DNA of 62,493 nucleotides, filler included, from Dimorphilus gyrociliatus (lineage: Eukaryota; Animalia; Annelida): the NCBI GenBank assembly GCA_904063045.1. It is 5 parts of 5 records of this genome, joined end to end, with 100 filler letters (N's around TTAATTAATTAA, not from the genome) between each part and the next. Parts side by side here need not be neighbours in the genome. Positions count along the whole stretch, not along the records: positions 1 to 23,517 come from CAJFCJ010000171.1; 4 more parts are not named here. One strand, 5' to 3'. The position numbers and the translations under genes are program-made. The notes below the pieces were generated by a model. It saw nothing but the letters and a program-made list of their open reading frames with translations. It did not search any database and was not told the origin of the DNA. This document shows, piece after piece, positions 1 to 35,097 of this stretch (the stretch's first letter is position 1; every line of letters begins with the position of its first letter).

Positions 1-460
1 TCTCTTCAGGATTGACTTGCTGTAAAACATGATAACTGGTTCTACTTGGAAAAGCAGGTTGTTCATGGTGACAAGTAAAAAATTGAGAACATTTGTTATT
101 CTTTTTTATCATGCTTAAGTCACAAACTACTTCTGTTGAGGCTATTGGTGAACATTGTTTAATTATAGCTAATTCTCCCATCTGACTACTGTGCATTCCC
201 AACTCATTTGTTAACACTGTGGTCAATTGAGGATCCAAATTTGCTAGTAATGCCATCATTCTGCTTCTTTGAACCAAATTGATTGCAGAGAAGACTTGAC
301 AGCTGTTGGGTAACTTTTTTAAATTCTTAAAATTTGAATCAATACCATGTAGTAAGGTAGATGTTTGGGCAGCTTCTCTCATTTCCAATGGGAATTTGTG
401 GTATGGGTTTTTACTTATCTTATGTTCAGTTTTGCTTCCTTCTTCATCTGCTTTTAGCCA
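1..460 (-). CDS. Env-like glycoprotein, gB-like domain III/IV segment (open to window edge)
   Basis: Hand translation: ..MALLANLDPQLTTVLTNELGMHSSQMGELAIIKQCSPIASTEVVCDLSMIKKNNKC.., resembling the herpes gB LNPNAIA..MLGDVMAVSTCVPV..NSM..C pattern. Confidence 0.65.
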
Positions 461-463
461 TTC

Positions 464-1060
464 TCATGTGTAGAGTAAAATAAATTCCTTCATAGTAATC
501 TTGAATTCTCTGGCTGGTGGTCCTTTATACCATATGCCCAATGTTGGTAATACCTTCTTTTTGATTCTTTTCTCACTGTATACATATTTTGAAATCGTGA
601 CAGATTGTCTTGTTGCCCTTGTCCAATTGACTGCTTGCAGCATTTCTTGGATATAATAGTTATCCAGCTCCCAGTAAGATGGACTAATGGGTTGTTGTAG
701 ATGATATATCACAACTTCCTTGAGTGTGCCTTTATTTCTCATTAGTTTATACTTTGTGTTTGTTTCTCTGTACCATTGGTTAAGACTTGGTAAGGGGTTG
801 TTTCGCTTGTATAGTATAATTTGTTCTTTAACTTTATTGGGATAGTTTAATAGTCGTTTTTCTTCATTCTTGCCAATCTTCTGATATTGTAGCAAATTGT
901 ATAGGTGTTCCTTGCTTGTTTCCTGTATTAAACTCTGTTCCTCCAGTGGTACTAGTACTTTTGTTCCAGGACCACCAATTCCATCAATAAACTTATCTTG
1001 ATAAGGGATGTCCAGAATAGAATACCCTGGACAAGAATAGTGACCAGCAATTTGATACAA
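464..1060 (-). CDS. Env-like glycoprotein, middle part (frameshifted continuation)
   Basis: Co-oriented ORF overlapping the end of the previous ORF and leading into the gB-like segment. Confidence 0.65.
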   Translation of the reverse strand: MYQIAGHYSCPGYSILDIPYQDKFIDGIGGPGTKVLVPLEEQSLIQETSKEHLYNLLQYQKIGKNEEKRLLNYPNKVKEQIILYKRNNPLPSLNQWYRETNTKYKLMRNKGTLKEVVIYHLQQPISPSYWELDNYYIQEMLQAVNWTRATRQSVTISKYVYSEKRIKKKVLPTLGIWYKGPPAREFKITMKEFILLYT

Positions 1061-4000
1061 CTAATTCTGTTGCTAATTTTTATCCATGGTGATTGTTGCC
1101 CAAGTGTGTAATTATTCTTGAGGTTCCTAAAGACAATAATTGCCTCTTCTGTTTCACAATAGGACTGCCCTGGTAAACAATCTTCCAGGTAGTCCAGATT
1201 AGTTGTAATTTTCATATTAGGAGGTTGCCAATATGCTTTGCCAAACTGGATAATTGTGGTGTATTCCAGCACCTTGGTCGTTGTTGGCCATGTGTAGGCA
1301 GCAGGAAACTGATCTTGGTGGATCCAAGTGTTTCTTTTCACCATTAAAGGTTTTCCTTGAAAAGATCGTTTGTCTTTTATCATCTGTCTGCATTGATCAT
1401 GAGTTACTTTGATAACTGAGTTAACAATCCTCCTCTTCTTTGCTCCAAAGAAATAGTAAGTGTAAAAATTAGTTCTTAGATACACTTGACATTTTACTGC
1501 TCTTGTTTCAATTTCTTCCAAGTTCAATTCATAGATATCAGCTGTAATTGTCTTGGTTTCTTGTGATTCTATATTACAAGTTGGCTCATCTGCTAGATCA
1601 AATGCCTGGCTTGGTAGTTGGTTAGAACAAAAGTATAACGGTGGTTTAAATGTTAAGGTAATGTTTGCACTTGTAACATGGGCACCTTGGTAGGATGGTT
1701 TTGGGACTGTTATTGAGTGGATGCAGCCACAGATCACCATTACAGTCATCACTAGTGGAAGCCACAACATCTGTTTCATGTTAGCTCTTCCTGTGTTGGC
1801 TATAGTTGAATGGTTGAAAATTTTGTGTTGTTGTTCCACTCTGATAGTTATTCCATCTTCTAACTCTATATATTGTGGTTCCACTTCTTGTTGGGAATCT
1901 AATTGTTCAGAGATGATTTTAGTCTCATCTAAAAATATGACTGACTCATTGTCTGTGTCACTTGTATTTTCTTTCTCATCTTGGGATGAATCTACCACTA
2001 TGAGGGACTCATTATCTGAATGGGTTATGTCAATAATTTCACCTTCAATAATTATTGACTCATTATCCGAATGGGTTATATCAATAATTTCGCTTTCAAT
2101 AATTATTGACTCATCGTCTGAACTAGATATTTCATCTTCTCTATCAGAGATAATGTTTGCCTCTGAATCTGTATTTTGATCCAGTTCATTATTTGTTTCT
2201 GTGTCATCACTTTCAGATGAGCTTGAAGGTTCATTGAGACTGTAATTACTGTCTGTTTTGAAAGTATTGCTTGTGTCATAACCAGTATCAGAATTAGTAA
2301 CTTCCATCTCTGAGTCATCACTATCTGAACTTTCTGATGAAGAGTCATGCTGTCCCATCATGGCTATAGTGACTTTGTTTAGTTGAGGTTGCCTTATTCT
2401 TTCAGCCAGGTTCCCTTTCCTTCTATCAAATTTGAGAGAACACTGTTTAGCTTCAAAATTGAGGTTTGCTCCCACAGTTTGTAGGAAATCACAACCAAGT
2501 ATTATTGCTATGTCTAGATTTTCCATAACTATAAATTCTTGTTCCATACTTTCTCCAGCAAATTGGATATTCAGCTTTACGCTTCCTTTTTGCTTTAAAG
2601 CTTTCCCATCAGCTGAAGTTATAATTGGTAAGCCAATTGTTTCTTTATCCATAATTGTAACATCCATTAACTTGATTTCTTTTTCAGTAATAAAGGATCT
2701 CAATGCTCCTGTGTCACACAAGGCAATGACTTCTTGGCCTTTTTGATTCTTCAAACGGAATTGGAAGTCATTTCTTCCTTCTACCTGAGAAAGATATTGG
2801 AGGTGTGTTATTTCCTTCTCCACAAGGTGAAAGATTGTTGTTGCTTCTTTCCCTGTTTCCAACTTATTAGATTCATTGGCTAGTCTTAATCTGCTACCAT
2901 GTACCAACTTGCATGTATTATCATCCATTTGTATTTCATATATCCACTTTTGATGATTGACTTTTGTTATTCGGTATGGGCCTAACCATTTTAAAGAAGG
3001 GATTTTTGTTATTGCAATTCTTGCAGCATCATTTCTTAAGAATACTTCATCATCAACCTCAAAATATTTTGGAAGATTGAGATTTCTATTCTTTCTTTCC
3101 CTATATTGTTCTTTTGCCATGATGGATTTACAGAAGGCTGTAGCTCTTAACTGTACTAATTGCTGCTGGTGATTGAATACAAATAGTACATTTGTTTCAG
3201 GAGAGGTAGTATGCATTGTTACATCAATCAGTGTTCTTGTGCTGGTGCCAAAAAGAAGTTCCTGGGGTGGTAGTCTTGTACTTCCTACAGGTGATTGATT
3301 CAAAAATGCTTGAATCAAGGGTAGGTTTGCAACCCAGTTATGCTGATTTTCTTCCACCACTAATTTATTGATTTCCTTCCTCACTTCTCTATTTCTTCGT
3401 TCAACTAGTCCATTGCTCTGGCTTCTATAAGCTGTTGTTTGGATTTTCTCAATACCTAATACCTTCATAAACTCTTTAAAAGCTTTACCAACAAAGTTTC
3501 TTCCTTGATCTGTCAACATTTGTTTTGGAATTCCAAAAATGGGAAAAAATCTGTTGAAAAGAAGGTTTGCAATTTCTTTACTGGTTTGCTGTTTGAGTGC
3601 ATATAAAACTGTGTATCTACTGAAATGATCCACTATCACAAGTATGAATCTGTATGACTTAACCATGGGTAAGGGTCCCATTATATCCATGGCTACCAAC
3701 TCCATTGGTGATGCAGGGTGAAAGGTTTCTACCAAAGGGTATACTCTACTCCTACCATTCATTTGTTCACACAAAGTGCAATCCTTTATTGAATTCTCAA
3801 TCATAATCTTTAATTTTGGGTGCCAAAAGGTCTTTGTAATTATTTGTAATGTCATTCTGGGTCCATGGTGATTGTGAATTTTATTTTTATGGAATTTAGG
3901 GAGCAGAGTTAGCATCAAATGGTCAGGTAAAACCAGAATGTTTCTTTCTTCAAGGATAATCCAGATCATTTCCTTGTGAACAAACATCTCCATTATGAAA

Positions 4001-4383
4001 GGTGTAAAAGTTCCAAAATAAGGAATAGGTAGCTGACCATCCAATGTTAAATATTCTTTAATTGATTTTAAATTCACATCTTTTTCTTGCTCTGACTGTA
4101 AGTCAACAGAAGACAAATCAATTTTCTCTTCACTGTTATCACTGGTAGCTACAAAAGTTAACTCTGGTGTATGTTCATACTGTTCCATTTTAACTGAAAT
4201 AGAGGGAGAATTCTCCTTTTTGATCTTTCCATGAATTAGCTCTTCAAATGTTACTTTCCTTGGGGGTGTATATTCTTCTAATCTTGTTAATGCATCTGCT
4301 CTATTTTTTCGTCCTGTCACATAGTTAATTGTAAATTTTAAATCCATTAAAGCCATGACCCATTTTGCTGTGCTGACATTCAA
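952..4383 (-). CDS. RNase H end - integrase - second aspartic protease - acidic spacer - signal peptide - Env N-terminal part, one frame
   Basis: NRADALTR; HNHHG..CTLC; DIMGP / TDQGRNF / NGLVERRN; WLGPY; ALCDTGALRSFI..LGCDFL; D/E/S-rich tract; MKQMLWLPLVMTVMVICGCIHS; Cys-patterned ectodomain. Confidence 0.9.
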   Translation of the reverse strand: MNVSTAKWVMALMDLKFTINYVTGRKNRADALTRLEEYTPPRKVTFEELIHGKIKKENSPSISVKMEQYEHTPELTFVATSDNSEEKIDLSSVDLQSEQEKDVNLKSIKEYLTLDGQLPIPYFGTFTPFIMEMFVHKEMIWIILEERNILVLPDHLMLTLLPKFHKNKIHNHHGPRMTLQIITKTFWHPKLKIMIENSIKDCTLCEQMNGRSRVYPLVETFHPASPMELVAMDIMGPLPMVKSYRFILVIVDHFSRYTVLYALKQQTSKEIANLLFNRFFPIFGIPKQMLTDQGRNFVGKAFKEFMKVLGIEKIQTTAYRSQSNGLVERRNREVRKEINKLVVEENQHNWVANLPLIQAFLNQSPVGSTRLPPQELLFGTSTRTLIDVTMHTTSPETNVLFVFNHQQQLVQLRATAFCKSIMAKEQYRERKNRNLNLPKYFEVDDEVFLRNDAARIAITKIPSLKWLGPYRITKVNHQKWIYEIQMDDNTCKLVHGSRLRLANESNKLETGKEATTIFHLVEKEITHLQYLSQVEGRNDFQFRLKNQKGQEVIALCDTGALRSFITEKEIKLMDVTIMDKETIGLPIITSADGKALKQKGSVKLNIQFAGESMEQEFIVMENLDIAIILGCDFLQTVGANLNFEAKQCSLKFDRRKGNLAERIRQPQLNKVTIAMMGQHDSSSESSDSDDSEMEVTNSDTGYDTSNTFKTDSNYSLNEPSSSSESDDTETNNELDQNTDSEANIISDREDEISSSDDESIIIESEIIDITHSDNESIIIEGEIIDITHSDNESLIVVDSSQDEKENTSDTDNESVIFLDETKIISEQLDSQQEVEPQYIELEDGITIRVEQQHKIFNHSTIANTGRANMKQMLWLPLVMTVMVICGCIHSITVPKPSYQGAHVTSANITLTFKPPLYFCSNQLPSQAFDLADEPTCNIESQETKTITADIYELNLEEIETRAVKCQVYLRTNFYTYYFFGAKKRRIVNSVIKVTHDQCRQMIKDKRSFQGKPLMVKRNTWIHQDQFPAAYTWPTTTKVLEYTTIIQFGKAYWQPPNMKITTNLDYLEDCLPGQSYCETEEAIIVFRNLKNNYTLGQQSPWIKISNRISCIKLLVTILVQGILFWTSLIKISLLMELVVLEQKY

Positions 4384-4469
4384 TTTGTTTTGCTTAAATG
4401 TTTGTACTAGACTCTGATGGTCAGTATATAAAAAGAATGGCTTGTCTTGAAGGTAATGTAAAAATTTCT

Positions 4470-7316
4470 TTACAACCCAGTAAACCCAAATGCTTCCTTT
4501 TGATAGGCTGCATATTTCATTTGATTATTGTTGAATTGTTTTGAAGCGTAGGCAATGGGTTTCATTGTTTTCTTCCCATTCTCATCTACATAAACTTGTT
4601 CAAGAACTCCTCCTACAGCTACATTCGATGCATCTGTTGTTAAGTGAAAATCTTTAGCAAAATCAGGTAGTTGTAATACAGGAGGGTTAACTACTGCATC
4701 TCTCAACTTGAAAAATGATTGCTTGGCTTCCTCAGTCCATTGCAATTTATCCTTTTTCCCATGTAGTTTCATTAACATATACAGAGGTTTAGCTACTCTT
4801 GCAAAATCTTGTATAAATTTTCTGTAATAGCCACAAAATGCAACAAAGCTTAGTAGTGAATTTGCAAACACTGGTGGCTGTAAATTATATAATTTATCTG
4901 TCTTGGACTTATCTGTTTCAATCCCCTTTTCTGATACAATGTGTCCCAAGAATTGAACTTGTTCTTTCAAAAACACACATTTACTTAGTTTAATCTTAAA
5001 ATTGTACTTTTGAATCTGTTGAAGAATGGTCTCCAATGCTTCCCAATGTTGGTCCAGCGACTTGGTAAATATTATTATGTCATCAAGGTAGTTTAGGCAC
5101 AAATGCTTTACATCCTTTAGCACAAATGAATTCATTACATAACTAAAATGAGGAGGGGCATTGGTTAATCCAAAAGGCATCTTAATAAATTCAAACAAGC
5201 CAAAAGGTGTAATAAATGCTGTTTTAGACCTATCTTCTTTCTTGATGTTAATGTGGTGGTATGCACTTGTCAAATCCATTGTAGAAAAGAATTTATTTCC
5301 TCCTCCCAAATGGTCAAAAAGATCATCTTGATTTGGCAGTGGATACTTGTTTTTAACTGTCATTTTGTTTAGTTTTCTATAATCTACACACATTCGTAGA
5401 CTACCTTCCTTCTTTCTTACGAAAACAATTGGTGAAGCCCAATTGCTCTTGCTTGGTTGAATAACTTTGCTTTTTACCAATTCAGCTATCTGTTGCTTAC
5501 ATTCTTCTTGTTTTTGAGGAGGCATTCTATATGGCCTTTGTCTATATGGTGTTGAACCTGGTTCAAGAGTTATTTCCAAGGGTGGTACCTCTGGATTGCC
5601 AATATCAAATCTGTCTTCTGCAATAGTTTCTTTATATTTTGCCAGAATTTGGGTAACTTTGTTCTTCATCTCGGGATTTTCTTGTTCAATTGTTGTCTGA
5701 AGGGTATGTATTTGACTCTCATTCTTTTTCATAATAAGAGGAACTGGGTAAAACCCTTTGAAAGATAAGTGTTGTGTTCCAACAGGGTAATTCTTTTCTG
5801 TACCTGGCTGGAGTATAATCTGTCTCTTGCCAAAGTCAAGGGTAGCTCCATTTTGTTGTAGAAAGTCACACCCAATAATACATTGTTGTGTAATGATTTT
5901 GTTGATCAGAAAGCGTTGTTTAATAATCTTTTCATTAAAATAAAGTCTGAGAATGATTTCTCCACATATCTCGATGCTATTTCCTGAAGCATCTCTAGCA
6001 TTTTTCACAGTTTGTTCTGGGAAGGATGCTTTTCCTTGAACTTGTCTTAATACCTTTTTTGAAATGAAAGATCTGTCACTACCAGAGTCTATCAAGGCAT
6101 CAAACTTAAAACCAGTATTAGTTTCAAATTGTCCAATAAATGTTGAAGCATTTCGCTCAGATTGTTTGCTTTGTAACAGCTGACAAGTGGATTCGTCACT
6201 ATCTGAAAAACAGAGAATATCTTGAACTTCGTCGTTTTCTGACATGCTTTCATTGTCTAATGTTTCTAATTTTTGTAGCTTAGGTTCCTCTTTCAGTATC
6301 GTCTTTGCTGGTTGATTTTTCTTATAATACCTATTTGTTGTAGTTGGTGCATACTTTTGGACTTTTTGGCTTGAAAACTTTTCTTTAGTAGCATTTTTGT
6401 TGTCAGGTACATGCTTTCTATTCCAGAAATTTGGGGTTTCTGTAGAAGCATCTTTTCTGATTACCTGGGTCTTTTTGGTCTCTTTTCTTTGTTGAGTTTC
6501 CAATTTTGACACCATTGTGATCGGTTTTCTTTGAGTTAGTTTTAATGAAGTTTCTGCTTGCTTAGCAGCCTCATATAGTTCTGCCAATGTTTGACATTTA
6601 GGATGTAAGGTGTACACTAAATGTAGAATATCCTGTTGTAATCCTCTTTGTAAAACTTCCATCAGTTTTATTTCTTTCATAGTTGCAAGCAATTGTGGTT
6701 CCATTGGTCTAGGTGGAGAAAACCTCTTTATCAATTTCTTTGCTCTATTAACAAACTGAACCACACTTTCGCCATTCATTTGCTTTAAGTTAAGCAATTT
6801 CTCCTGATACTCCAAAGGATCTAGATCAAATTCGTCATGGAGGGCTTTCCATATTTCCTCCACAGTAGGCTCTCCATCCAGAGCCAACACCAAATCCTTT
6901 GCAGGACCAGTTAAATAATCTAAAAGATTTGCTTTCACAACATCTTCTCCTATCCAACCATAAGCATAACATGCCTGATTAAAGTCTTCTTTGAATTTTG
7001 AACACTCCTTGCTTCCATCATACAACTTGAGAATAGTTCTTTGAGGGCGGTCCCAAGCAGCCCTTAATGCTTGAATTACTGTTGTGATATCAACATTTGG
7101 GTTCTGTGCTGGGTGATGTGTTCCATCTCCATGATCTGTTGGAATTGTGATTCGATTTCTTTTCATTTCACTCACCAATCTATCATAGTCTTCAATTAGT
7201 CTTTGTTGCCTTTCTGACATTCCTGCTGGCTGAATTGTAATTGTTGGAGTTGCTGGGGTTGAAGGGTTAGAGTCTGTAACTGCCCCAGTGGCGTTTCCAT
7301 TTCCTCCTTCTGCCAT
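4470..7316 (-). CDS. Gag-PR-RT-RNase H (N-part) polyprotein; likely start MAEGG at 7316
   Basis: Retrotransposon capsid-like Gag (LYDGSK..YLTGPAK..LKQMNGESV), ALIDSGSDRSFIS, LRMCVDYRKLN, YLDDII, LTTDASNVAVGGVL; frame ends inside RNase H. Confidence 0.93.
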   Translation of the reverse strand: MAEGGNGNATGAVTDSNPSTPATPTITIQPAGMSERQQRLIEDYDRLVSEMKRNRITIPTDHGDGTHHPAQNPNVDITTVIQALRAAWDRPQRTILKLYDGSKECSKFKEDFNQACYAYGWIGEDVVKANLLDYLTGPAKDLVLALDGEPTVEEIWKALHDEFDLDPLEYQEKLLNLKQMNGESVVQFVNRAKKLIKRFSPPRPMEPQLLATMKEIKLMEVLQRGLQQDILHLVYTLHPKCQTLAELYEAAKQAETSLKLTQRKPITMVSKLETQQRKETKKTQVIRKDASTETPNFWNRKHVPDNKNATKEKFSSQKVQKYAPTTTNRYYKKNQPAKTILKEEPKLQKLETLDNESMSENDEVQDILCFSDSDESTCQLLQSKQSERNASTFIGQFETNTGFKFDALIDSGSDRSFISKKVLRQVQGKASFPEQTVKNARDASGNSIEICGEIILRLYFNEKIIKQRFLINKIITQQCIIGCDFLQQNGATLDFGKRQIILQPGTEKNYPVGTQHLSFKGFYPVPLIMKKNESQIHTLQTTIEQENPEMKNKVTQILAKYKETIAEDRFDIGNPEVPPLEITLEPGSTPYRQRPYRMPPQKQEECKQQIAELVKSKVIQPSKSNWASPIVFVRKKEGSLRMCVDYRKLNKMTVKNKYPLPNQDDLFDHLGGGNKFFSTMDLTSAYHHINIKKEDRSKTAFITPFGLFEFIKMPFGLTNAPPHFSYVMNSFVLKDVKHLCLNYLDDIIIFTKSLDQHWEALETILQQIQKYNFKIKLSKCVFLKEQVQFLGHIVSEKGIETDKSKTDKLYNLQPPVFANSLLSFVAFCGYYRKFIQDFARVAKPLYMLMKLHGKKDKLQWTEEAKQSFFKLRDAVVNPPVLQLPDFAKDFHLTTDASNVAVGGVLEQVYVDENGKKTMKPIAYASKQFNNNQMKYAAYQKEAFGFTGL

Positions 7317-7354: not shown

Positions 7355-7372
7355 ATCCTGTCGACTGCGCCA
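7355..7372 (-). promoter_or_regulatory. Primer binding site TGGCGCAGTCGACAGGAT, probably tRNA-Ser
   Basis: Begins TGG just after the LTR; complementary to the metazoan tRNA-Ser type 3' end (TCCTG.CGACTGCGCCA), assigned from memory. Confidence 0.8.
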
Positions 7373-7376
7373 AATT

Positions 7377-8011
7377 TGTACTGCTCTTGCTGGCAAAATC
7401 TATGCGTTTGCAAGTTATAACAATACTGGTTCTACTCGAACCTTTAAACAAATGTTTAAATTAAAATGGTTTATTCGCAATAATAATACTTAAGCAAGTA
7501 ACAATATGAGAGTTCAATAGCAGAGTAGATAGTTTGTAATAGCAGGTTGCCAAATTACCAAACTGTCTTCCAATGTTGAGGAGTAGATGGATGGTTCCAG
7601 TGGAGGTTGTTTCCAGATGATTTTCCCAGGTCCTTGGGTCCAGATGGAAGCTGCATGCCAAATGAGAATAATGAGGATTTATATACTTTGAGGTTTGTCT
7701 CTGACATCCAATCATCACTTTACAGTTGCCAAAATGTGTAGTTCATATTTATCTTTAGTAACAGGATGTTACAAGGTTCAACATTTAGGAAGGTTAATTG
7801 AATTATAACTTGGCCACACCCTAGGCAAGTTAATTAAATTATAACTTGGCCAAACCTTTATTGGTAATTAAAGATGAACCTTCAAGCTGACTAATCAGAC
7901 TTATGTTTGGCCAATGTTATAGCATTTTCTTGCGTAGGTTTTAAGATGTACATGTATATGTTGCATAAAATAATAGAGTTCAAGCATGTAAAATATAACC
8001 AAAGTTGTACA
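7377..8011 (-). repeat. 5' LTR of copy A (635 bp, TGTAC...GTACA)
   Basis: Identity with copy B starts exactly at TGTACAAC with different flanks; ends GTACA 4 nt before the PBS; contains TATATAAA and AATAAA. Confidence 0.9.
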
Positions 8012-10416: not shown

Positions 10417-11884
10417 AAAGATTCTTCACCATCATCCATCACTAACTTCTCTAGTCTGATCTTTCCAACACAACATTCTGTCTAATTTAAAGTAAGATAT
10501 CTATTGTGAATTTTGGTTGATTCCTTGGACTTTGTCCTGAATTGATCAAATGTCTTTTATATAAGGTTTTCTGGTTGATTCCTTTTCTTTTGAATCTGAA
10601 TTGACCTTGTTTTGTAGGGAACAGCTTTGTTAATGCTCTAATTTATAGTAAGGTTTCATTTCACAGAGAAATAATTCTCTTATTAAAAGTAACAATAACA
10701 TCCTTCTCTTTATATTAGAAACTTAAACTAAATGGGTTTTCCATTTTTCCACCATAGTTTCTCTAATTTACATGATAGAGATTTGATTTTTTTAACATTG
10801 GGAGTGTAGACTATGCCAAATTCAAATCCGTTTACAGAAATAATATAACACTTGTAGTTTTTCAGTTATTAGCTGTTGAAAAAGGTTTTTTAAAAGTTGC
10901 TTTTTGCATAGAAAACATTAAGATTTGACATATTTCTTTGGGTAGGATATTAAATAATATGCCAATTAATTAAAAACATTAAACTAGGTTAACATATTGA
11001 ATGTTTCTTTCTTAAAAAAATTAACTTTTTTAATTGAAAACATGTCAAAATGTTTCGGATGCTCTTAATTGATTAATACATAAGATTAGGTAGTTATTCC
11101 TTATCTATAGCTGTAAGTCTTTGCTCTTAAATTAAATAATTGATACAAATCTTACTTAAAGTTGTTAATCTTTAAAATATAGACTGTTCAAAAATTTATC
11201 GAATATTCAATTTTTGTCATAGAAAATCATGCTATTTTAATATTATTGTTAAATATATAACTGTAGAAGTAAATAAGCTTAACGTAGGTATAAACAGATT
11301 TAAATTCTGTTAGGTAATAGCTGAGAAAAGTTAATTTTTCGATTTTGAAAAAGGTGACTTAAAACAATGTATTTAAAAATAGATCAAACATCTACAGATG
11401 TATTAATTCTTTACAAATTTGATTGAATAATAAGATAAGCAACAATCTTATTTATAATTATCATTTTAGGAGAAGTCTGGGTTAATTTTTTATCATTTTC
11501 TTTAATTATTTCATGATTTATGTACACAAATAGGCCTATAGCTCCTTTAATATTAGAGCTAGAAACTTGATTTTTTGAACGTAGAAAGATATTACTAAAC
11601 CTAAATTAAATTTTGTAACAAATTCATCCTATCTGGTATAGTTTTTGCTCATTTGACAGTGGAACATAAACTTTTCAACTTAATTTTTATAGTAGAAAAT
11701 CCAAACTGTTAACCTTCATTCTTGTATAGGCTAATTAGAATTTAAATGGGCTAAACATAGATCAAAACAGATCTAAAATCAGTCAAGTAAATGCTGAGAA
11801 AAGTTAAATTAAAGATTGTAATATTTGTTAAAAAATAGCTATAATTATAATCAATAATGTTGTGTTTAATACTTTTTGCGCAGG

Positions 11885-13390
11885 ATGAATATCCAGTGGT
11901 TTATGCCCTTCAAAACTCTGCCTTATATGCATCCTCATGTTGATGTAAACATGAACAATTTAAAAGTCCAACTAAGATACATTCTACAATGCTATTTCAA
12001 AGCAGAGAATTGTAAAGTAGCAAATCATTGGAATCACCTTTTAGAAAATGAAATAAAGAGGACAGATCTTGGAGGCAAAAATAAGTTAGATTATTATAGA
12101 GATAATAGAGAGAATAACATATTTGAAGACATATTTGAAGGCAAAAAACAGCTGATAAATACTGTAGAAAGATGCTTTAAAGATTTTTATGAATTGCACA
12201 AGAAACTTAATCAATACTTCTACTTAAAAAGATTGTTAAATCTTTTAGAATCTAAGGAAGAGTTAATTAAAGTATTAAATTTTGTAAATGGGGAAGTGTT
12301 AAATACTAAGAGGAATATGAAGAATTTCTCCAAATCATATTTTGATGAATTTTATCAAGATGTTCTTAATTTTTATGACAATATGAAGAAAAGAAATAGA
12401 GATTTTCAGGAAAACGAAATTGTAAATCAAGCTTCTGCACCACAGCAAATAGAAAATACACAAGTTATTAAAGAGGTTGCTGTTCAAGTGGATAGGGCCC
12501 CTACCCATAACATTGCTGTTCAAGTAAAGAAGCCATTAACAATTGATATTGCTGTTCAAATATCTAAAACATTCAAACATGGAAGCACCCAAACTACTGT
12601 ATCAAGGTCAACTAACAAGAGAAAGATTCCAAAAGTGAAGGAGGTGAAGGATTCAGAAAGAGAAAATCAAGGAGGGGAACCACAAAGAAAGAAGCTAAGA
12701 GTTGAAAGAGCAACAGAGCAGGAGCAAGAGAAAGGAAAAGAACCAAAACAGCAAAAAGAGTCACTCAAGAGAAAGAAGTCTAGAGTTGAAGGAAGAAGAG
12801 AAGAAAAAGCGCAGCAAGCAGAGAAAGAAAAAGAGGAAGAACATCCAGAGGGAAAAAAGGAGGAAAGAGTTATGGAATTGAATAAATTTAAATACATAAA
12901 GAGAAAGAATGTGAAATTGGATAAAGCCTTTAAAGGAAAATGTAGACAGGAACATTATGACTGTATAATAATTAGTGATTGTTCCTTTGATAGACTGTCA
13001 GAGAAACAACTCTTCCAGATTAAAGATACAACTATGGGAATCAGCAAAAATGTTGTGTTTTTCCAAATAGAGAAATTGACATTTTTGGATATAATTGAAA
13101 TATGCCAGAAATGGAAATTTTCATTTACAAAAATATTTTTCTTCTCCAAACAGAAACCTAAAACTTCTGGAGAAATTCTCAATCAGTCAGTCAAACTTGA
13201 AAAGATATATCTCCCTGTCAACTATTTTACAACTTATACTGAGAGAAATATGAAGAGAACTGGATTGAACTTTATAGCACTTCCTCAACAATTGCAGAGC
13301 AAGTTAATCAATAAAAACGGTGGTTATAATCAGCTTTCTCAACAACAAGATCAATACCTCCTACTTAAACACTTCTTTAATGAATTGTAA
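11885..13390 (+). CDS. ORF1: unknown N-domain, charged linker, C-terminal SGNH/GDSL-like domain
   Basis: ~500-aa intact ORF; ATG just after acceptor TTTTGCGCAG; CIIISDCSF motif paralogous to ORF2 and ORF3. Confidence 0.75.
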   Translation: MNIQWFMPFKTLPYMHPHVDVNMNNLKVQLRYILQCYFKAENCKVANHWNHLLENEIKRTDLGGKNKLDYYRDNRENNIFEDIFEGKKQLINTVERCFKDFYELHKKLNQYFYLKRLLNLLESKEELIKVLNFVNGEVLNTKRNMKNFSKSYFDEFYQDVLNFYDNMKKRNRDFQENEIVNQASAPQQIENTQVIKEVAVQVDRAPTHNIAVQVKKPLTIDIAVQISKTFKHGSTQTTVSRSTNKRKIPKVKEVKDSERENQGGEPQRKKLRVERATEQEQEKGKEPKQQKESLKRKKSRVEGRREEKAQQAEKEKEEEHPEGKKEERVMELNKFKYIKRKNVKLDKAFKGKCRQEHYDCIIISDCSFDRLSEKQLFQIKDTTMGISKNVVFFQIEKLTFLDIIEICQKWKFSFTKIFFFSKQKPKTSGEILNQSVKLEKIYLPVNYFTTYTERNMKRTGLNFIALPQQLQSKLINKNGGYNQLSQQQDQYLLLKHFFNEL

Positions 13391-15321: not shown

Positions 15322-16451
15322 GTCATTTAAAAATCAATTTGATCAGGCGAAAAAAAATTTTACACGTAAAAACAAATGTTTGACAAGTAAAAAATAAAGA
15401 AATGTTAAATCTTTAACTATAACAGTTTAATTCATAGAAGCATTTAATTACTATATTTGGTTGATGATTTCTCATAATAATCTTTCTATATTCTTTATAC
15501 AGAGCCAACTTTTTGCTGATTGATTTGCTATTTGCTGCTCTTTTTTTTCAACATTTTTCTTGGATTACAGAGTTAGTTATATGTTACATTGTAATATGAA
15601 TTTTTATTATTATTATATATTTTTTCTTACAGCATCTCAACCTTAAATCTGATTGACCACATTTGAAGTTCTACAAGATCAAAACCTACTAACTGTTCCC
15701 TTCTTCTTCTTGAGTCTTACAAGAATCTAGCTATAAATGTAAGTAGTTTATGTTTTGTTTTGAAGAGTTTTGTCTCCATAAATAAATTTACAGCCCTTGG
15801 TATGAATTTATTTTTGTTTTAAATATTTCTTTATGTTAATATATTGAGATATTCCACCTTTCTTATAAATTTAAAAGGATTACTTTTATGTAAAAAGAAA
15901 TACAAAGAAACACTTTTTTGAAACTTTTTAATTTATTATAAAAACTTGTATATTCCCAATGAAAAAAAGTTCACCTTTTAGGTTCTTCATTTCAATGGAA
16001 TATATATGCAAAGTTTAGGACTGCAAAATTCTACATTTTTCTTTACAGAATAACTCTAAATGAAATGGCTTTTTTTGCTTTTAAATTTACAATTATTCTT
16101 TTCCTAAATTTTAACTATTTTTCATGAGAAACACTTTTTGCTTTCCAGTTTTTTTAATGTGAAAGGTTGTTGATTCTCCATGAAACAAGTTTGCCTTTTA
16201 GGCTCTTTATTTCAAAGGAGTAAATATGCAACATAATTTAATTTCAGATCCAAAATTTTTCTCTACAGAATATCATTAAAAAAAATTATTTTTTTGGTTC
16301 TATGAGGAGGAATATCACAAATATGATCAGAAATATATTTATATATATGGTTAGGCTACTTATATTTATGTTCATGTTGAGTTACAAACTATGTTATTGA
16401 ATAGATATTTATGTTTTGTTTCTTTTTTGTTATTCATTTAAGAAAGGAATA

Positions 16452-19040
16452 ATGAATTGTAAACTGAAAATGAAAGGAAATAAAGAAAAAACAAAGCTAC
16501 AAATCCATCCATGGTTTTATCCTGATATCTTTAAAGAAAAGGAATGCCTTAAATTCAATTTCAATACAGCACAATCTGATATTTACAAACAACTTAAGTT
16601 CATCATTGAAAAGCATATTGAAAAATATATTGGTGTCCCATTCAAAAAAATTTGTAGTTCATCAGAATTCTTATACTTTGTCAATAGATTTAATATTACA
16701 AAAGCTTTTCAAGAATCAATGAAAAATGAATATAAGAAGTTTAAAGATCTAATTGAAAAAATGTATTTGGAAAATCTGGAACATTACCTTGTATTTGAAA
16801 ATTATGCTAATAATCTTGGTATTCTATGCAGACACTTTGATGAAAATGATATCAAAAGATGGATTTCAAAAATCTTTTTGGAAAAATCTGCCAGATTGGA
16901 CAAGGACTTTGTTGATGAAACAAAAGAGAGTTTGATGGAATTTTGTGTAAGATGTAAAAGTAATGATAAAAACAGGAAAAAGAACAAACCTAACCCTGAG
17001 TCATCTAGAAGAGAAAATGGTGTAAGTGACATGGCTGCTATAATAGATATTGGTACAAATGGTGAAAAAATTAAAGAAATCACAATAATGAAAAAGGTTA
17101 CAACTGATAGTATAATTAAAGAAATACAAGAAGATAAGAAAGATACAAGTCATGGCACAATTAAGGAAATGAAAGGAAATAGGAAATATACAAGTGACAA
17201 GGAAATAGAAAAATCATCAGTTGTTGAAAAAGATGAAAGTCATAAGAAATTGAAAGCAACATCTATAATAGAGACACATACAAGTGATAATATTGTAAAA
17301 GAAACACTTGTAACAGAGAAGGATGCAAATTATAAGGAAATAGAAGAAACAACTATTCTACAGAAAAATTATGATACTAATATCAAAGATAAAGGGGATA
17401 GTCTGAAAGAACATCAACAAATTTTTAATGAATTGGAAAGAGAAAATGAACAAAGTATTCTAACAACAATTGATTCTCCAAGTGATAACAAGCCAGAACA
17501 AGTGAAAGATGATGAGTTTATTGCAGAAAAGAGAGACTCTGTTAGTATAACCAATGAAGAAAACAATCAACAAACCAAATCAACTGAATCTAGTATAGAA
17601 AGAAATAATGAACAAATAGTAAATACAGCTGAGGAAACCAAGAATAAAACAGCAACTGAAGAAAAGGATAAAAATGAGGAAGAAAGGTTTACAGATCAAA
17701 TCAGTGTTGAAAATGATCTTACTGAAATGATGGAAACAGCTACAAATGAAAATGATAACAAATTTTGTTCAAGAGACATTTCAAATGAGACAATCATGGG
17801 TGCTTGTGATAAAGAATCTGTTGTTACAAAATTACATTTGTCAAAAAATTTTGAATTAGGATCACCATTAAAAACATCTTCACCAATAGAAACTACTAAC
17901 AATATCTCCATTGATTCTAGTGAACTGGATTTGTTTGATGAAAAAGCCTGGTTGGCATTGGAAGAGATGAGGTCTCAAGATCACTGCAAAGAAGCAAAAA
18001 AAATGGGTATAGATGGAGCCAATGCACTTGTTTTGAGTATGACAGATTGCATCAAAAAATATAAGGGATGGAAAATGATATTGAGGAACAATTATAGAAA
18101 AGATAAAAAGCTGATTGATATTTATAGAGAATGGGGAAAGAATTTCTTGTCAGACAAGGAGGCAAAAAACTTTTCAAAGTTATTGCCACCAAATATACAA
18201 ATGAAAACAGAATTTTTTATGATATCTGACAGTTCATTTAGAGATATTCAAGTCAAAACTATCTCAATATTAGCCTCCAAATATAAAATTGCTAAAAATG
18301 GAATATTAATCAACATTAGCCAATTAAACTATGAAGATATTTTACCCATTTTAATAAACTGGAATATTCAATGTCAATATATATTCATACATACAAATTT
18401 AAATTCTCCTAAAGAAACATATGGATTAGCAAAATTTCTAAAGAACAAGTATGGAACTTGCAAGAATGTGATCATAGCCATTCCATTTGGCACAAAACTA
18501 TTTTCTGCATACAAAGATATTCAAATGGCAACTAAGAACCAAGCCACTGTTCTTGATATGACTGATATGAGAAAATTGGGATTTACAGATAATCCAACTG
18601 GAAATTCGAAATGTAAACACCTGACAAAGAAGGCACAAGAATTTTCAATTGATTTAGTAATGAAAACTTTGCAGAGAATTATCAAAGATCAGAAAGAGGA
18701 AACAATGGACATAGATACATCAACTAACAAGGTAATATTAATGTCTGGATTTAATTTCTATAAACAATTAAATACTCAATATGTTGTTAATTTGAGCAAA
18801 TATCAGATTCCAAATGATGTCAATAGTTTTTTTAATCTTGGTTTAAAGTTTGTACATGAAAGTATAAAACCAGACAAATGGAAGCAATACACATTGTTCA
18901 ATTTAGAGAGATTCTTTAAAAAAGTATCAATCATTAAAAAACAAAATAAATCAACAAATCTGGAAAATCTTAGATGTATTAACTATCAATGGATACCAAA
19001 AGAAGGATTTGAAAGAAATATAACATCTGTTGAAAACTAG
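16452..19040 (+). CDS. ORF2 N-half: N-domain, acidic linker, helical segment, SGNH-like domain, start of the PLE pol (VVNLS..LGLKF)
   Basis: Intact ORF; FFMISDSSFRDI..KHLTKKA; PLE N-terminal motif YVVNLSKYQIPNDVNSFFNLGLKF at ~18783. Confidence 0.8.
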   Translation: MNCKLKMKGNKEKTKLQIHPWFYPDIFKEKECLKFNFNTAQSDIYKQLKFIIEKHIEKYIGVPFKKICSSSEFLYFVNRFNITKAFQESMKNEYKKFKDLIEKMYLENLEHYLVFENYANNLGILCRHFDENDIKRWISKIFLEKSARLDKDFVDETKESLMEFCVRCKSNDKNRKKNKPNPESSRRENGVSDMAAIIDIGTNGEKIKEITIMKKVTTDSIIKEIQEDKKDTSHGTIKEMKGNRKYTSDKEIEKSSVVEKDESHKKLKATSIIETHTSDNIVKETLVTEKDANYKEIEETTILQKNYDTNIKDKGDSLKEHQQIFNELERENEQSILTTIDSPSDNKPEQVKDDEFIAEKRDSVSITNEENNQQTKSTESSIERNNEQIVNTAEETKNKTATEEKDKNEEERFTDQISVENDLTEMMETATNENDNKFCSRDISNETIMGACDKESVVTKLHLSKNFELGSPLKTSSPIETTNNISIDSSELDLFDEKAWLALEEMRSQDHCKEAKKMGIDGANALVLSMTDCIKKYKGWKMILRNNYRKDKKLIDIYREWGKNFLSDKEAKNFSKLLPPNIQMKTEFFMISDSSFRDIQVKTISILASKYKIAKNGILINISQLNYEDILPILINWNIQCQYIFIHTNLNSPKETYGLAKFLKNKYGTCKNVIIAIPFGTKLFSAYKDIQMATKNQATVLDMTDMRKLGFTDNPTGNSKCKHLTKKAQEFSIDLVMKTLQRIIKDQKEETMDIDTSTNKVILMSGFNFYKQLNTQYVVNLSKYQIPNDVNSFFNLGLKFVHESIKPDKWKQYTLFNLERFFKKVSIIKKQNKSTNLENLRCINYQWIPKEGFERNITSVEN

Positions 19041-23517: not shown

Positions 23518-23617
23518 NNNNNNNNNNNNNNNNNNNNNNNNNNNNNNNNNNNNNNNNNNNNTTAATTAATTAANNNNNNNNNNNNNNNNNNNNNNNNNNN
23601 NNNNNNNNNNNNNNNNN
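23518..23617. other. Artificial gap/linker N44-TTAATTAATTAA-N44
   Basis: Identical 100-bp pattern four times; six-frame stop linker. Confidence 0.97.
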
Positions 23618-28191: not shown

Positions 28192-28458
28192 TATGACATT
28201 TGCTCAGATACTAGAGAGGAAATTGAATTGCTGACATTTGATAATGTCACTTATAAAGTACATTTTAAGTTTTTTGGAAAAATTATACAAGTCTTACTAT
28301 AAGTTATGAAAATATGATGTTAAATCTTTTGGAAAATTTATTCAACATATAATATATTTAAGAACAATTGCTTTTGATGTAAAGGATACTATTTGAATTG
28401 TTTCTATTTTCTTCAGACAGCTTTAAAAAAGATATTTTTGTGTTGGAAAGTTTTTAAA

Positions 28459-29310: not shown

Positions 29311-29945
29311 TGTACAACTTTGGTTATATTTTACATGCTTGAACTCTATTATTTTATGCAACATATACATGTACATCTTAAAACCTACGCAAGAAAATGC
29401 TATAACATTGGCCAAACATAAGTCTGATTAGTCAGCTTGAAGGCTCATCTTTAATTACCAATAAAGGTTTGGCCAAGTTATAATTTAATTAACTTGCCTA
29501 GGGTGTGGCCAAGTTATAATTCAATTAACCTTCCTAAATGTTGAACCTTGTAACATCCTGTTACTAAAGATAAATATGAACTACACATTTCGGCAACTGT
29601 AAAGTGATGATTGGATGTCAGAGACAAACCTCAAAGTATATAAATCCTCATTATTCTCATTTGGCATGCAGCTTCCATCTGGACCCAAGGACCTGGGAAA
29701 ATCATCTGGAAACAACCTCCACTGGAACCTTCCATCTACTCCTCAACATTGGAAGACAGTTTGGTAATTTGGCAACCTGCTATTACAAACTATCTACTCT
29801 GCTATTGAACTCTCATATTGTTACTTGCTTAAGTATTATTATTGCGAATAAACCATTTTAATTTAAACATTTGTTTAAAGGTTCGAGTAGAACCAGTATT
29901 GTTATAACTTGCAAACGCATAGATTTTGCCAGCAAGAGCAGTACA
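29311..29945 (+). repeat. 5' LTR of copy B (635 bp)
   Basis: TGTAC..GTACA; about 3 substitutions versus LTR A by eye. Confidence 0.9.
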
Positions 29946-29949
29946 AATT

Positions 29950-29967
29950 TGGCGCAGTCGACAGGAT
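29950..29967 (+). promoter_or_regulatory. PBS of copy B (tRNA-Ser type)
   Basis: TGGCGCAGTCGACAGGAT, 4 nt after the LTR. Confidence 0.8.
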
Positions 29968-32900
29968 ATTCTTTTGGTTTATTCAAAAGTTTTGAGAAAG
30001 TAAATATGGCAGAAGGAGGAAATGGAAACGCCACTGGGGCAGTTACAGACTCTAACCCTTCAACCCCAGCAACTCCAACAATTACAATTCAGCCAGCAGG
30101 AATGTCAGAAAGGCAACAAAGACTAATTGAAGACTATGATAGATTGGTGAGTGAAATGAAAAGAAATCGAATCACAATTCCAACAGATCATGGAGATGGA
30201 ACACATCACCCAGCACAGAACCCAAATGTTGATATCACAACAGTAATTCAAGCATTAAGGGCTGCTTGGGACCGCCCTCAAAGAACTATTCTCAAGTTGT
30301 ATGATGGAAGCAAGGAGTGTTCAAAATTCAAAGAAGACTTTAATCAGGCATGTTATGCTTATGGTTGGATAGGAGAAGATGTTGTGAAAGCAAATCTTTT
30401 AGATTATTTAACTGGTCCTGCAAAGGATTTGGTGTTGGCTCTGGATGGAGAGCCTACTGTGGAGGAAATATGGAAAGCCCTCCATGACGAATTTGATCTA
30501 GATCCTTTGGAGTATCAGGAGAAATTGCTTAACTTAAAGCAAATGAATGGCGAAAGTGTGGTTCAGTTTGTTAATAGAGCAAAGAAATTGATAAAGAGGT
30601 TTTCTCCACCTAGACCAATGGAACCACAATTGCTTGCAACTATGAAAGAAATAAAACTGATGGAAGTTTTACAAAGAGGATTACAACAGGATATTCTACA
30701 TTTAGTGTACACCTTACATCCTAAATGTCAAACATTGGCAGAACTATATGAGGCTGCTAAGCAAGCAGAAACTTCATTAAAACTAACTCAAAGAAAACCG
30801 ATCACAATGGTGTCAAAATTGGAAACTCAACAAAGAAAAGAGACCAAAAAGACCCAGGTAATCAGAAAAGATGCTTCTACAGAAACCCCAAATTTCTGGA
30901 ATAGAAAGCATGTACCTGACAACAAAAATGCTACTAAAGAAAAGTTTTCAAGCCAAAAAGTCCAAAAGTATGCACCAACTACAACAAATAGGTATTATAA
31001 GAAAAATCAACCAGCAAAGACGATACTGAAAGAGGAACCTAAGCTACAAAAATTAGAAACATTAGACAATGAAAGCATGTCAGAAAACGACGAAGTTCAA
31101 GATATTCTCTGTTTTTCAGATAGTGACGAATCCACTTGTCAGCTGTTACAAAGCAAACAATCTGAGCGAAATGCTTCAACATTTATTGGACAATTTGAAA
31201 CTAATACTGGTTTTAAGTTTGATGCCTTGATAGACTCTGGTAGTGACAGATCTTTCATTTCAAAAAAGGTATTAAGACAAGTTCAAGGAAAAGCATCCTT
31301 CCCAGAACAAACTGTGAAAAATGCTAGAGATGCTTCAGGAAATAGCATCGAGATATGTGGAGAAATCATTCTCAGACTTTATTTTAATGAAAAGATTATT
31401 AAACAACGCTTTCTGATCAACAAAATCATTACACAACAATGTATTATTGGGTGTGACTTTCTACAACAAAATGGAGCTACCCTTGACTTTGGCAAGAGAC
31501 AGATTATACTCCAGCCAGGTACAGAAAAGAAATTACCCTGTTGGAACACAACACTTATCTTTCAAAGGGTTTTACCCAGTTCCTCTTATTATGAAAAGAA
31601 TGAGAGTCAAATACATACCCTTCAGACAACAATTGAACAAGAAAATCCGAGATGAAGAACAAAGTTACCCAAATTCTGGCAAAATATAAAGAAACTATTG
31701 CAGAAGACAGATTTGATATTGGCAATCCAGAGGTACCACCCTTGGAAATAACTCTTGAACCAGGTTCAACACCATATAGACAAAGGCCATATAGAATGCC
31801 TCCTCAAAAACAAGAAGAATGTAAGCAACAGATAGCTGAATTGGTAAAAAGCAAAGTTATTCAACCAAGCAAGAGCAATTGGGCTTCACCAATTGTTTTC
31901 GTAAGAAAGAAGGAAGGTAGTCTACGAATGTGTGTAGATTATAGAAAACTAAACAAAATGACAGTTAAAAACAAGTATCCACTGCCAAATCAAGATGATC
32001 TTTTTGACCATTTGGGAGGAGGAAATAAATTCTTTTCTACAATGGATTTGACAAGTGCATACCACCACATTAACATCAAGAAAGAAGATAGGTCTAAAAC
32101 AGCATTTATTACACCTTTTGGCTTGTTTGAATTTATTAAGATGCCTTTTGGATTAACCAATGCCCCTCCTCATTTTAGTTATGTAATGAATTCATTTGTG
32201 CTAAAGGATGTAAAGCATTTGTGCCTAAACTACCTTGATGACATAATAATATTTACCAAGTCGCTGGACCAACATTGGGAAGCATTGGAGACCATTCTTC
32301 AACAGATTCAAAAGTACAATTTTAAGATTAAACTAAGTAAATGTGTGTTTTTGAAAGAACAAGTTCAATTCTTGGGACACATTGTATCAGAAAAGGGATT
32401 GAAACAGATAAGTCCAAGACAGATAAATTATATAATTTACAGCCACCAGTGTTTGCAAATTCACTACTAAGCTTTGTTGCATTTTGTGGCTATTACAGAA
32501 AATTTATACAAGATTTTGCAAGAGTAGCTAAACCTCTGTATATGTTAATGAAACTACATGGGAAAAAGGATAAATTGCAATGGACTGAGGAAGCCAAGCA
32601 ATCATTTTTCAAGTTGAGAGATGCAGTAGTTAACCCTCCTGTATTACAACTACCTGATTTTGCTAAAGATTTTCACTTAACAACAGATGCATCGAATGTA
32701 GCTGTAGGAGGAGTTCTTGAACAAGTTTATGTAGATGAGAATGGGAAGAAAACAATGAAACCCATTGCCTACGCTTCAAAACAATTCAACAATAATCAAA
32801 TGAAATATGCAGCCTATCAAAAGGAAGCATTTGGGTTTACTGGGTTGTAAAGAAATTTTTACATTACCTTCAAGACAAGCCATTCTTTTTATATACTGAC

Positions 32901-35097
32901 CATCAGAGTCTAGTACAAACATTTAAGCAAAACAAATTGAATGTCAGCACAGCAAAATGGGTCATGGCTTTAATGGATTTAAAATTTACAATTAACTATG
33001 TGACAGGACGAAAAAATAGAGCAGATGCATTAACAAGATTAGAAGAATATACACCCCCAAGGAAAGTAACATTTGAAGAGCTAATTCATGGAAAGATCAA
33101 AAAGGAGAATTCTCCCTCTATTTCAGTTAAAATGGAACAGTATGAACATACACCAGATTAACTTTTGTAGCTACCAGTGATAACAGTGAAGAGAAAATTG
33201 ATTTGTCTTCTGTTGACTTACAGTCAGAGCAAGAAAAAGATGTGAATTTAAAATCAATTAAAGAATATTTAACATTGGATGGTCAGCTACCTATTCCTTA
33301 TTTTGGAACTTTTACACCTTTCATAATGGAGATGTTTGTTCACAAGGAAATGATCTGGATTATCCTTGAAGAAAGAAACATTCTGGTTTTACCTGACCAT
33401 TTGATGCTAACTCTGCTCCCTAAATTCCATAAAAATAAAATTCACAATCACCATGGACCCAGAATGACATTACAAATAATTACAAAGACCTTTTGGCACC
33501 CAAAATTAAAGATTATGATTGAGAATTCAATAAAGGATTGCACTTTGTGTGAACAAATGAATGGTAGGAGTAGAGTATACCCTTTGGTAGAAACCTTTCA
33601 CCCTGCATCACCAATGGAGTTGGTAGCCATGGATATAATGGGACCCTTACCCATGGTTAAGTCATACAGATTCATACTTGTGATAGTGGATCATTTCAGT
33701 AGATACACAGTTTTATATGCACTCAAACAGCAAACCAGTAAAGAAATTGCAAACCTTCTTTTCAACAGATTTTTTCCCATTTTTGGAATTCCAAAACAAA
33801 TGTTGACAGATCAAGGAAGAAACTTTGTTGGTAAAGCTTTTAAAGAGTTTATGAAGGTATTAGGTATTGAGAAAATCCAAACAACAGCTTATAGAAGCCA
33901 GAGCAATGGACTAGTTGAACGAAGAAATAGAGAAGTGAGGAAGGAAATCAATAAATTAGTGGTGGAAGAAAATCAGCATAACTGGGTTGCAAACCTACCC
34001 TTGATTCAAGCATTTTGAATCAATCACCTGTAGGAAGTACAAGACTACCACCCCAGGAACTTCTTTTTGGCACCAGCACAAGAACACTGATTGATGTAAC
34101 AATGCATACTACCTCTCCTGAAACAAATGTACTATTTGTATTCAATCACCAGCAGCAATTAGTACAGTTAAGAGCTACAGCCTTCTGTAAATCCATCATG
34201 GCAAAAGAACAATATAGGGAAAGAAAGAATAGAAATCTCAATCTTCCAAAATATTTTGAGGTTGATGATGAAGTATTCTTAAGAAATGATGCTGCAAGAA
34301 TTGCAATAACAAAAATCCCTTCTTTAAAATGGTTAGGCCCATACCGAATAACAAAAGTCAATCATCAAAAGTGGATATATGAAATACAAATGGATGATAA
34401 TACATGCAAGTTGGTACATGGTAGCAGATTAAGACTAGCCAATGAATCTAATAAGTTGGAAACAGGGAAAGAAGCAACAACAATCTTTCACCTTGTGGAG
34501 AAGGAAATAACACACCTCCAATATCTTTCTCAGGTAGAAGGAAGAAATGACTTCCAATTCCGTTTGAAGAATCAAAAAGGCCAAGAAGTCATTGCCTTGT
34601 GTGACACAGGAGCATTGAGATCCTTTATTACTGAAAAAGAAATCAAGTTAAGGATGTTACAATTATGGATAAAGAAACAATTGGCTTACCAATTATAACT
34701 TCAGCTGATGGGAAAGCTTTAAAGCAAAAAGGAAGCGTAAAGCTGAATATCCAATTTGCTGGAGAAAGTATGGAACAAGAATTTATAGTTATGGAAAATC
34801 TAGACATAGCAATAATACTTGGTTGTGATTTCCTACAAACTTGGGAGCAAACCTCAATTTTGAAGCTAAACAGTGTTCTCTCAAATTTGATAGAAGGAAA
34901 GGGAACCTGGCTGAAAGAATAAGGCAACCTCAACTAAACAAAGTCACTATAGCCATGAGGGACAGCATGACTCTTCATCAGAAATCAGATAGTGATGACT
35001 CAGAGATGGAAGTTACTAATTCTGATACTGGTTATGACACAAGCAATACTTCAAAACAGACAGTAATTACAGTCTCAATGAACCTTCAAGCTCATCT

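Follow-up and report, generated by a model that had tools for sequence, protein, structure and literature searches.

An intact second retropepsin between integrase and Env in a Ty3/gypsy element of Dimorphilus gyrociliatus, and its possible part in releasing Gag-Pol

Introduction

To our knowledge, retroviruses and LTR elements have been described with one protease, placed upstream of the reverse transcriptase (RT). The question raised by the present locus, from the annelid Dimorphilus gyrociliatus, is whether a gypsy-type element carries a further retropepsin (PR2) between its integrase (IN) and its Env, and, if so, what such an enzyme would do there. A first-pass annotation of the same DNA had proposed this second domain, and had viewed it as an old, retained duplication that may release Env or IN from the polyprotein by an unusual processing strategy. 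In this study, the presence, retention, rarity, origin and possible role of PR2 were investigated in the window, by which we mean the whole stretch of 62,493 nucleotides analysed, filler included. The layout proved to be real, conserved, rare and carried by a known element, and from it we infer a role for PR2.

Layout of the element and its family

Copy A of the LTR element lies on the minus strand, from 8011 down to the window start, and consists of an LTR (635 bp), primer site, Gag, the ordinary protease (PR1), RT, RNase H, integrase, PR2, an acidic spacer, a signal-like stretch and Env, in that order. The features, in window positions, are as follows.

7377..8011, minus strand: 5' LTR of copy A, 635 bp, with short inverted ends TG...CA; the similarity between copies A and B stops at 8011
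7361..7372, minus strand: primer-binding site, 4 nt past the LTR, 12 of 12 nt as in the site listed for Dgyr_errantivirus_1
6261..7316, minus strand: Gag, capsid-like by a weak PNMA match (E 1.7e-4, below cut-off)
5793..6122, minus strand: PR1, the ordinary retropepsin upstream of RT, with a DSG motif and profile matches
4935..5420, minus strand: reverse transcriptase core (Pfam RVT_1, E 1e-33)
4345..4739, minus strand: RNase H, inside which the window's frame breaks, a probable read error
2860..3927, minus strand: integrase, with zinc finger, core and C-terminal domain; homology to relatives stops near residue 550 of P0001
2434..2772, minus strand: PR2, the second retropepsin, by Pfam, BLASTP and profile scan, with the catalytic DTG codons at 2707-2715
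2628..2687, plus strand: 60-nt stretch skipped in sequencing run X5, with intron-like ends opposite to the element strand
1840..2349, minus strand: acidic spacer of 170 residues, open in frame (31% D/E, 28% S/T, 3% K/R)
1690..1779, minus strand: internal Met and hydrophobic stretch (KD19 peak 2.07, residues 922-940 of P0001), a putative signal
1..1689, minus strand: Env ectodomain, class III fusogen-like, running off the window start; frame breaks below about 1050 are probably read errors
29311..35097, plus strand: copy B, with another 5' flank, cut by the contig end at 35097
34546..34882, plus strand: PR2 of copy B, with two single-base gaps

The Ty3/gypsy domain order PR-RT-RNase H-IN is present, as are the LTR hallmarks of TG...CA ends and a primer site in the 5' LTR region; a purine run before the LTR start was seen in the loose end of a contig from run X1, the 3' LTR lying outside the window. 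The best relatives of the RT and IN are gypsy polyproteins with 23-38% identity, and the RT forms a long isolated branch among 103 rows in a tree without an outgroup.

An open frame of 1190 codons (952-4524) runs without a stop from the end of RNase H through integrase, PR2 and acidic spacer into the N-terminal part of Env. The IN-PR2-spacer-Env part is thus open in the window itself, and the element as a whole probably encodes a single Gag-Pol-PR2-Env polyprotein. Since short-read contigs differ from the window by single-base indels at the frame breaks in RNase H and Env, these breaks are probably long-read errors, and the same probably holds for the dozen breaks in copy B; we rejected the window's frame breaks as proof that the element has decayed. 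Copy B is a second insertion, with a 5' flank different from that of copy A, and its truncation is not biological, because it stops at the contig end and spacer. Across 5798 columns the two copies are 99.7% identical, with 3 substitutions and 12 gap letters. PR2 is found in copy B, as the first-pass annotation had noted, but broken by its two gaps, and at such identity this copy was rejected as independent support for conservation.

Seven sequencing runs from two studies were considered, five of which (X1-X5) hold most of the element, whereas X6 (share 0.08) and X7 provide no evidence. X1 to X4 come from one study, possibly the window's own source, and X5 is the only well-covered run from the other; no RNA holder was found among the runs listed. 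In X3, the window start is joined to an LTR by a contig of 854 nt, which gives an LTR-to-LTR distance of 8679, the same as that of Annelida_Polychaeta_Dgyr_errantivirus_1 (Chary and Hayashi, PMC13524379), whose listed primer site (12 of 12 nt), 4-nt gap between LTR and primer site and LTR of about 635 bp also match. On primer site, LTR length and spacing, the element very likely belongs to this published family, which is catalogued with seven copies, an Env of HSV/gB type, a GAG-POL listing and a chromodomain after integrase called by HHpred (PMC13524379). The word "protease" appears once in the main text of that article and in none of its seven supplements, and no second protease is mentioned in its text, figures aside. 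In our hands, no chromodomain was found after integrase by Pfam, by solved chains or by a profile from two to three relatives, and the gap from the end of integrase to PR2 is only about 35 residues long. This suggests that the published chromodomain annotation missed or mis-called the region after integrase.

PR2 is a retropepsin by sequence and a putative homodimer by model

The proposed second retropepsin was borne out as a complete domain in one frame that passes the Pfam cut-offs. The range first given for it, 2435..2770, covers the domain, though its end at 2770 is out of frame and the in-frame extent is 2434-2772 on the minus strand. The bit scores against the respective cut-offs were 30.9/20.3 for RVP_2, 28.2/20.7 for RVP, 30.7/28.2 for gag-asp_proteas and 27.6/24.3 for Asp_protease_2, and PR2 outscores PR1 in the Pfam retropepsin families. 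When a retropepsin profile was run over all six frames of the whole window, it was significant at only four places, namely PR1 and PR2 of each copy. PR2 aligns with PR1 at 29 of 95 identical positions (31%; BLASTP E 2e-10 in a single comparison), which agrees with the earlier description of a diverged second copy, and the DTG catalytic motif is kept at residues 20-22 of P0005. Compared with 43 other proteases, the family residues D20, T21, G22, G56, G63, I91, L92, G93, D95, F96 and L97 are retained, so the conserved columns include the DTG, two glycines of the flap region and ILG.DFL. The base make-up of PR2 is that of the rest of the element (GC 0.348, GC3 0.283).

Retropepsins work as dimers and need a partner, and the usual retropepsin is activated at capsid assembly. 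The homodimer model of PR2 scored 0.42 against 0.00 for the best of three controls, a result that may reflect memory of solved retropepsins; 21 of 30 solved homodimers came up to the mark used, against 0 of 23 single chains (17 of 29 and 0 of 30 for eukaryotes). The model runs share at least 70% of their contacts, with partner pLDDT of 76-77 and contacts of D20 with D20' and T21 with T21'. By sequence, PR2 is an intact retropepsin, for which the model suggests a canonical homodimer, and its proteolytic activity is predicted. Single-sequence fold models were poor (pLDDT 33 and 36); the one for PR2, put through a fold search, matched nothing at E 0.001, with Ddi1 and retroviral proteases in the top rows, and this search was not used as evidence. 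An Atlas feature look-up of the integrase end plus PR2 gave leads only, at 0.76. In common with solved retropepsins (Pfam RVP and RVP_2; ASPRV1, Ddi1), PR2 has the DTG motif and the ILG.D motif, it may form the homodimer predicted by the model, and ASPRV1 gives a weak full-length match to it (E 0.31); unlike other retropepsins, it sits after integrase and is extra to the usual copy.

Retention of PR2 in the family

We observed that PR2 is a retained and integral part of the family, as judged from contigs of several runs, the shared base make-up and the conserved residues. Single contigs span it at even depth in X1, X2, X3 and X4; one short-read contig of X1 extends over 358-5931 (2 other letters, 5 gaps) and one of X3 over 103-4485, and over 2380-2900 neither X2 nor X4 departs from the window. 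In one of the five runs covering PR2, X3, the main contig shows a one-base gap within the domain. As to whether other family members lack the domain, it turned up in all the close contigs looked at, less 60 nt in the main one of X5.

These contigs also bear on whether PR2 could be an artefact of assembly or a piece of some unrelated element nested in this one. Some other gypsy proteases are indeed as close to PR2 as PR1 is, and the window is error-prone; against this, PR2 is in frame on both sides, occurs in both copies, is spanned by the contigs of four runs, shares the base make-up of its surroundings and sits in an element whose LTR-to-LTR distance equals the published one. Nested insertion was rejected on these grounds, and we regard either form of this explanation as scarcely credible.

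Parts of PR2 are also covered, in X3, X4 and X5, by diverged sibling contigs with a likeness of about 82-87%. The 33 changes listed comprise 16 silent and 17 replacing ones, an excess of silent changes (silent-site fraction 0.19; binomial p 1.2e-4), and 17 of 30 changed places are third positions (p 0.007). The first-pass annotation had pointed to neutral evolution as evidence against its view; the crude pN/pS is 0.25, a value from incomplete tables (which for one contig list 14 of its 23 differences), from stretches selected for likeness and from several pooled lineages. These siblings may hold PR2 between IN and Env, as the element does, and the DTG is untouched among the 33 changes listed.

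The main contig of X5 skips 60 nt (20 codons) of PR2 in frame, and 2632-2649 are covered by no contig of that run. The ends of the skipped stretch, read on the other strand from that of the element, are a GTAAG donor and a pyrimidine-rich CAG acceptor. The same run also skips 66 nt at 7693-7758 in the LTR, with GT..AG ends and a pyrimidine tract, again on the opposite (plus) strand. The host median intron is 66 bp (PMC7854359). Given the intron-like ends opposite to the element, the further 66-nt skip and this host intron length, antisense splicing in an RNA run is the likelier account, and we consider it quite probable that the 60-nt skip reflects such splicing and not loss. The element is then likely covered by an antisense transcript that undergoes splicing and may be a silencing precursor, the alternative being genomic deletions; if X5 is DNA, there is a lineage without 20 codons of PR2, that is, without an intact PR2. 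No large splice joint from leader to Env was seen among the 15 of 44 joints listed.

The X5 contig would be an argument for seeing PR2 as a dispensable relic of an old recombination or duplication, held open only because the Env downstream needs the frame, and frame-keeping by itself would purge stops. Nevertheless, frame-keeping would neither preserve the DTG, the glycines of the flap and ILG.D in a domain that has diverged by 69% from PR1 nor yield an excess of silent changes, and the skip itself is better explained by antisense splicing. We hold the relic explanation to be unlikely.

Rarity of the layout among relatives

The order of a protease after integrase is unusual, as had been supposed: it was found in none of the 120 gypsy relatives listed of 133 found, all of which have an integrase and 87 a protease. 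Two proteases occur in one of the 120 listed (P0122), and a membrane-like segment (KD19 at least 2.3) in one as well, again P0122. This gypsy polyprotein has a membrane segment at 92-121, tandem intact retropepsins at 176-302 and 331-448, about 30 residues apart and upstream of RT, and then RT, RNase H and IN; it was spotted by eye before the membrane scan, and the parallel comprises two cases and one contrast. The N-terminal part of P0122 gave no match to the Env alignment (probability 0.1%), and by analogy its layout looks like that of the GAG-ENV-POL elements set out in PMC13524379.

Neither the PR2 region nor the Env region matched anything at E 0.001 among proteins of 654-2083 residues (121 and 257 candidates), and no close relative of the element was present in the protein collections searched. 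Likewise, no related locus came up for PR2 or P0001 among viral contigs, metagenome contigs or phage records, or for P0013 among viral contigs. A literature search by title and the start of abstracts, with most subscription papers outside it, showed nothing on a second or duplicated protease in LTR elements. The top match to the integrase region, P0017, is an annotated protein that lacks RT and reaches this rank through having two integrase-like halves.

Env and its relatives

Env is in frame with IN and PR2, and not in a separate third frame as in insect errantiviruses. Its N-terminal part matched Monjiviricetes_fusion in the Atlas feature look-up (0.91, with 162 shared features), and eight relatives were obtained at E 0.001 among 1.84 billion representatives, one of which passes the cut-off of Rhabdo_glycop_FD and one that of Monjiviricetes_fusion. 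The Env profile matches four solved "Glycoprotein" chains (E 0.004-0.007), the window's Env piece alone had no Pfam match, and the diversity of the Env alignment precluded a pattern search. On this homology, the Env after Pol appears to be a class III, rhabdovirus-G-like fusogen. The likeness seen here is to the rhabdovirus/Monjiviricetes G type, and the matched published element is filed under the HSV/gB type (PMC13524379).

One Env relative whose surroundings were examined, L001, is a gypsy element with its Env, of Monjiviricetes type, in its own frame after a stop and with a single protease. An unclassified region of about 280 residues plus an acidic spacer follows its integrase, and a further frame of 476 codons, with no clear Pfam match, comes after Env; the stretches concerned are L001:4998-6227 and L001:8694-10124. 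L002 is a sibling with 63% identity.

Proposed role of PR2

With no stop from integrase through PR2 and the acidic spacer to Env, translation of unspliced RNA always yields an integrase joined to the signal-like hydrophobic stretch. As Env has its own signal-like stretch after the spacer, it would be freed by the host signal peptidase and not by a cytosolic PR2. The earlier suggestion that PR2 releases Env or IN is thus kept for IN, together with the rest of Gag-Pol, and set aside for Env, whose cleavage would fall on the lumenal side. We put at roughly 0.5 the probability that PR2 frees Gag-Pol from a membrane-tethered Env leader while host signal peptidase frees Env, the cleavage being predicted. 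According to this model, the hydrophobic stretch would send Env into the ER, as established membrane topology suggests, where host signal peptidase would cut it free on the lumenal side and leave Gag-Pol-PR2-spacer tied to the cytosolic face of the membrane. Crowded together at the membrane, PR2 domains would pair up there and cleave the linkers that flank them, so that Gag-Pol would be released before capsid assembly and PR1 would be left for late maturation in the particle.

The model is supported by P0122, the sole two-protease relative among the 120 listed of 133, which is also the sole membrane-bearing one, and by the contrast with L001, which has its related Env behind a stop, in a frame of its own, and only one protease. 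Glycoprotein precursors of the Atlas type are cut by cellular proteases (PMC9094657). As counterpoints, PR1 is intact and could cut the same linkers as PR2; the proteases of P0122 lie in tandem upstream of RT, unlike PR2 after integrase; and Atlas virus has a Gag-Pol-Env polyprotein of 2828 residues with no second viral protease mentioned in the text covered of PMC9094657. A cleavage-like pattern derived from the element's own junctions is present in both PR2 linkers; being post hoc and occurring about once per 100 residues (20 matches in 2103), it is a prediction only.

Alternatively, PR2 may be accessory cargo after integrase that cuts host proteins, such as defence factors, or serves as a dimerisation module without processing. 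The slot after a gypsy-like integrase is a receptive one, taking OTU or Ulp1 cysteine proteases in Ginger1 (PMC2836005), a dUTPase in ERV3 (PMC4299795), chromodomains in other elements (PMC13524379) and, in L001, the unclassified region of about 280 residues with its acidic spacer. Cargo would also fit the conservation data equally well as Gag-Pol release. It leaves unexplained, however, why the sole other protein with two proteases among the 120 listed is also alone in bearing a membrane segment. Nothing points to a host substrate either, and we judge cargo rather unlikely.

A further possibility is that PR2 pairs with the PR1 of the same chain, forming a concentration-independent, pepsin-like site once PR2 has been translated, just before the signal stretch emerges, and thereby timing or restraining processing. 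Both domains are intact and 31% identical, they are each other's top phmmer match (by a thin margin for PR2), retropepsins need a partner, and P0122 shows two intact proteases about 30 residues apart. On the other hand, the PR2 homodimer model passed its mark, and about 1000 residues of RT, RNase H and IN separate PR1 from PR2; such pairing seems improbable to us.

Returning to the release of Gag-Pol by PR2, a broader and more tentative proposal, which we think doubtful though worth stating, is that retroelements with Env in the Pol polyprotein have repeatedly gained a second retropepsin beside the Env membrane boundary, combining early release at the membrane with late maturation in the capsid, and that PR2 may even pair with the PR1 of its own chain as a self-activating switch. 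No switch of this kind between PR1 and PR2 is described for any LTR element in the parts of the literature covered here.

Origin of PR2

The view of PR2 as an old, retained duplication stands as far as retention is concerned, and the protease ranking and trees neither support nor refute duplication of PR1. By BLASTP, PR1 ranks fourth of 85 other gypsy proteases against PR2, and by phmmer it ties for first (39.1 vs 39.0 bits). In a quick tree of 86 rows, PR1 and PR2 are unresolved and apart, whereas a tree of 36 hand-picked rows joins them with support of 63 and a long-branch warning. Going by sequence, PR2 is possibly a duplicate of PR1; it is old, and the odds are about even between a copy of PR1 and a capture from another gypsy element.

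Comparison with known systems and significance

The most abundant LTR class of the host, the Dingle elements (Dinophilidae Gypsy-like; PMC7854359), are Ty3/gypsy elements with a gB-like Env downstream of integrase, a likeness to our element drawn from their description. The text and supplements of that article, as covered here, hold no second protease, and its domain figure (Extended Data Fig. 3d) may draw PR2. Atlas virus (Belpaoviridae; PMC9094657) resembles the element in having Env in the same polyprotein as Pol, but differs in being of BEL/Pao type with a class II Env, with no second protease mentioned in the same text. In the GAG-ENV-POL gypsy elements of nematodes, bryozoans and flatworms, Env also adjoins Pol, in another order (PMC13524379). 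Ginger1 transposases (PMC2836005) share with PR2 the placement of a protease domain C-terminal to a gypsy-type integrase; they are, however, DNA transposons whose OTU or Ulp1 cysteine proteases are aimed at ubiquitin or SUMO, with no retropepsin and no Env.

An element with two proteases would illustrate one way for a retrotransposon to take in a captured fusion protein with no need of a spliced gene apart, which is a step in the emergence of infectious retroelements, and it offers a small, testable system for the timing of retropepsin activation. The 1512 catalogued enveloped elements could be screened for a second protease.

Other features of the window

The window is AT-rich animal DNA in five pieces, with N-linker-N spacers at 23518-23617, 35098-35197, 52926-53025 and 61007-61106, and its genes include Death-TIR, mucin and LGR-like ones; no tRNA genes were found in it. 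A frame with Death domain and TIR lies at 28378-29295, its TIR match reaching position 93 of the 122 in the profile and ending 15 nt short of copy B, and the insertion of copy B may interrupt this innate-immunity gene. Long AT-rich open frames of 222-879 codons at 11870-13390, 16401-21418, 23992-25710 and 26874-27542 have no Pfam match above cut-off. A mucin-like gene (VWD, C8, TIL, LDLa) with long 12-nt tandem repeats of Thr/Gly type and larger repeats of 1358 nt occupies 36274-52969, and an LGR-like receptor frame with LDLa-LRR-7TM order is found at 53181-54503.
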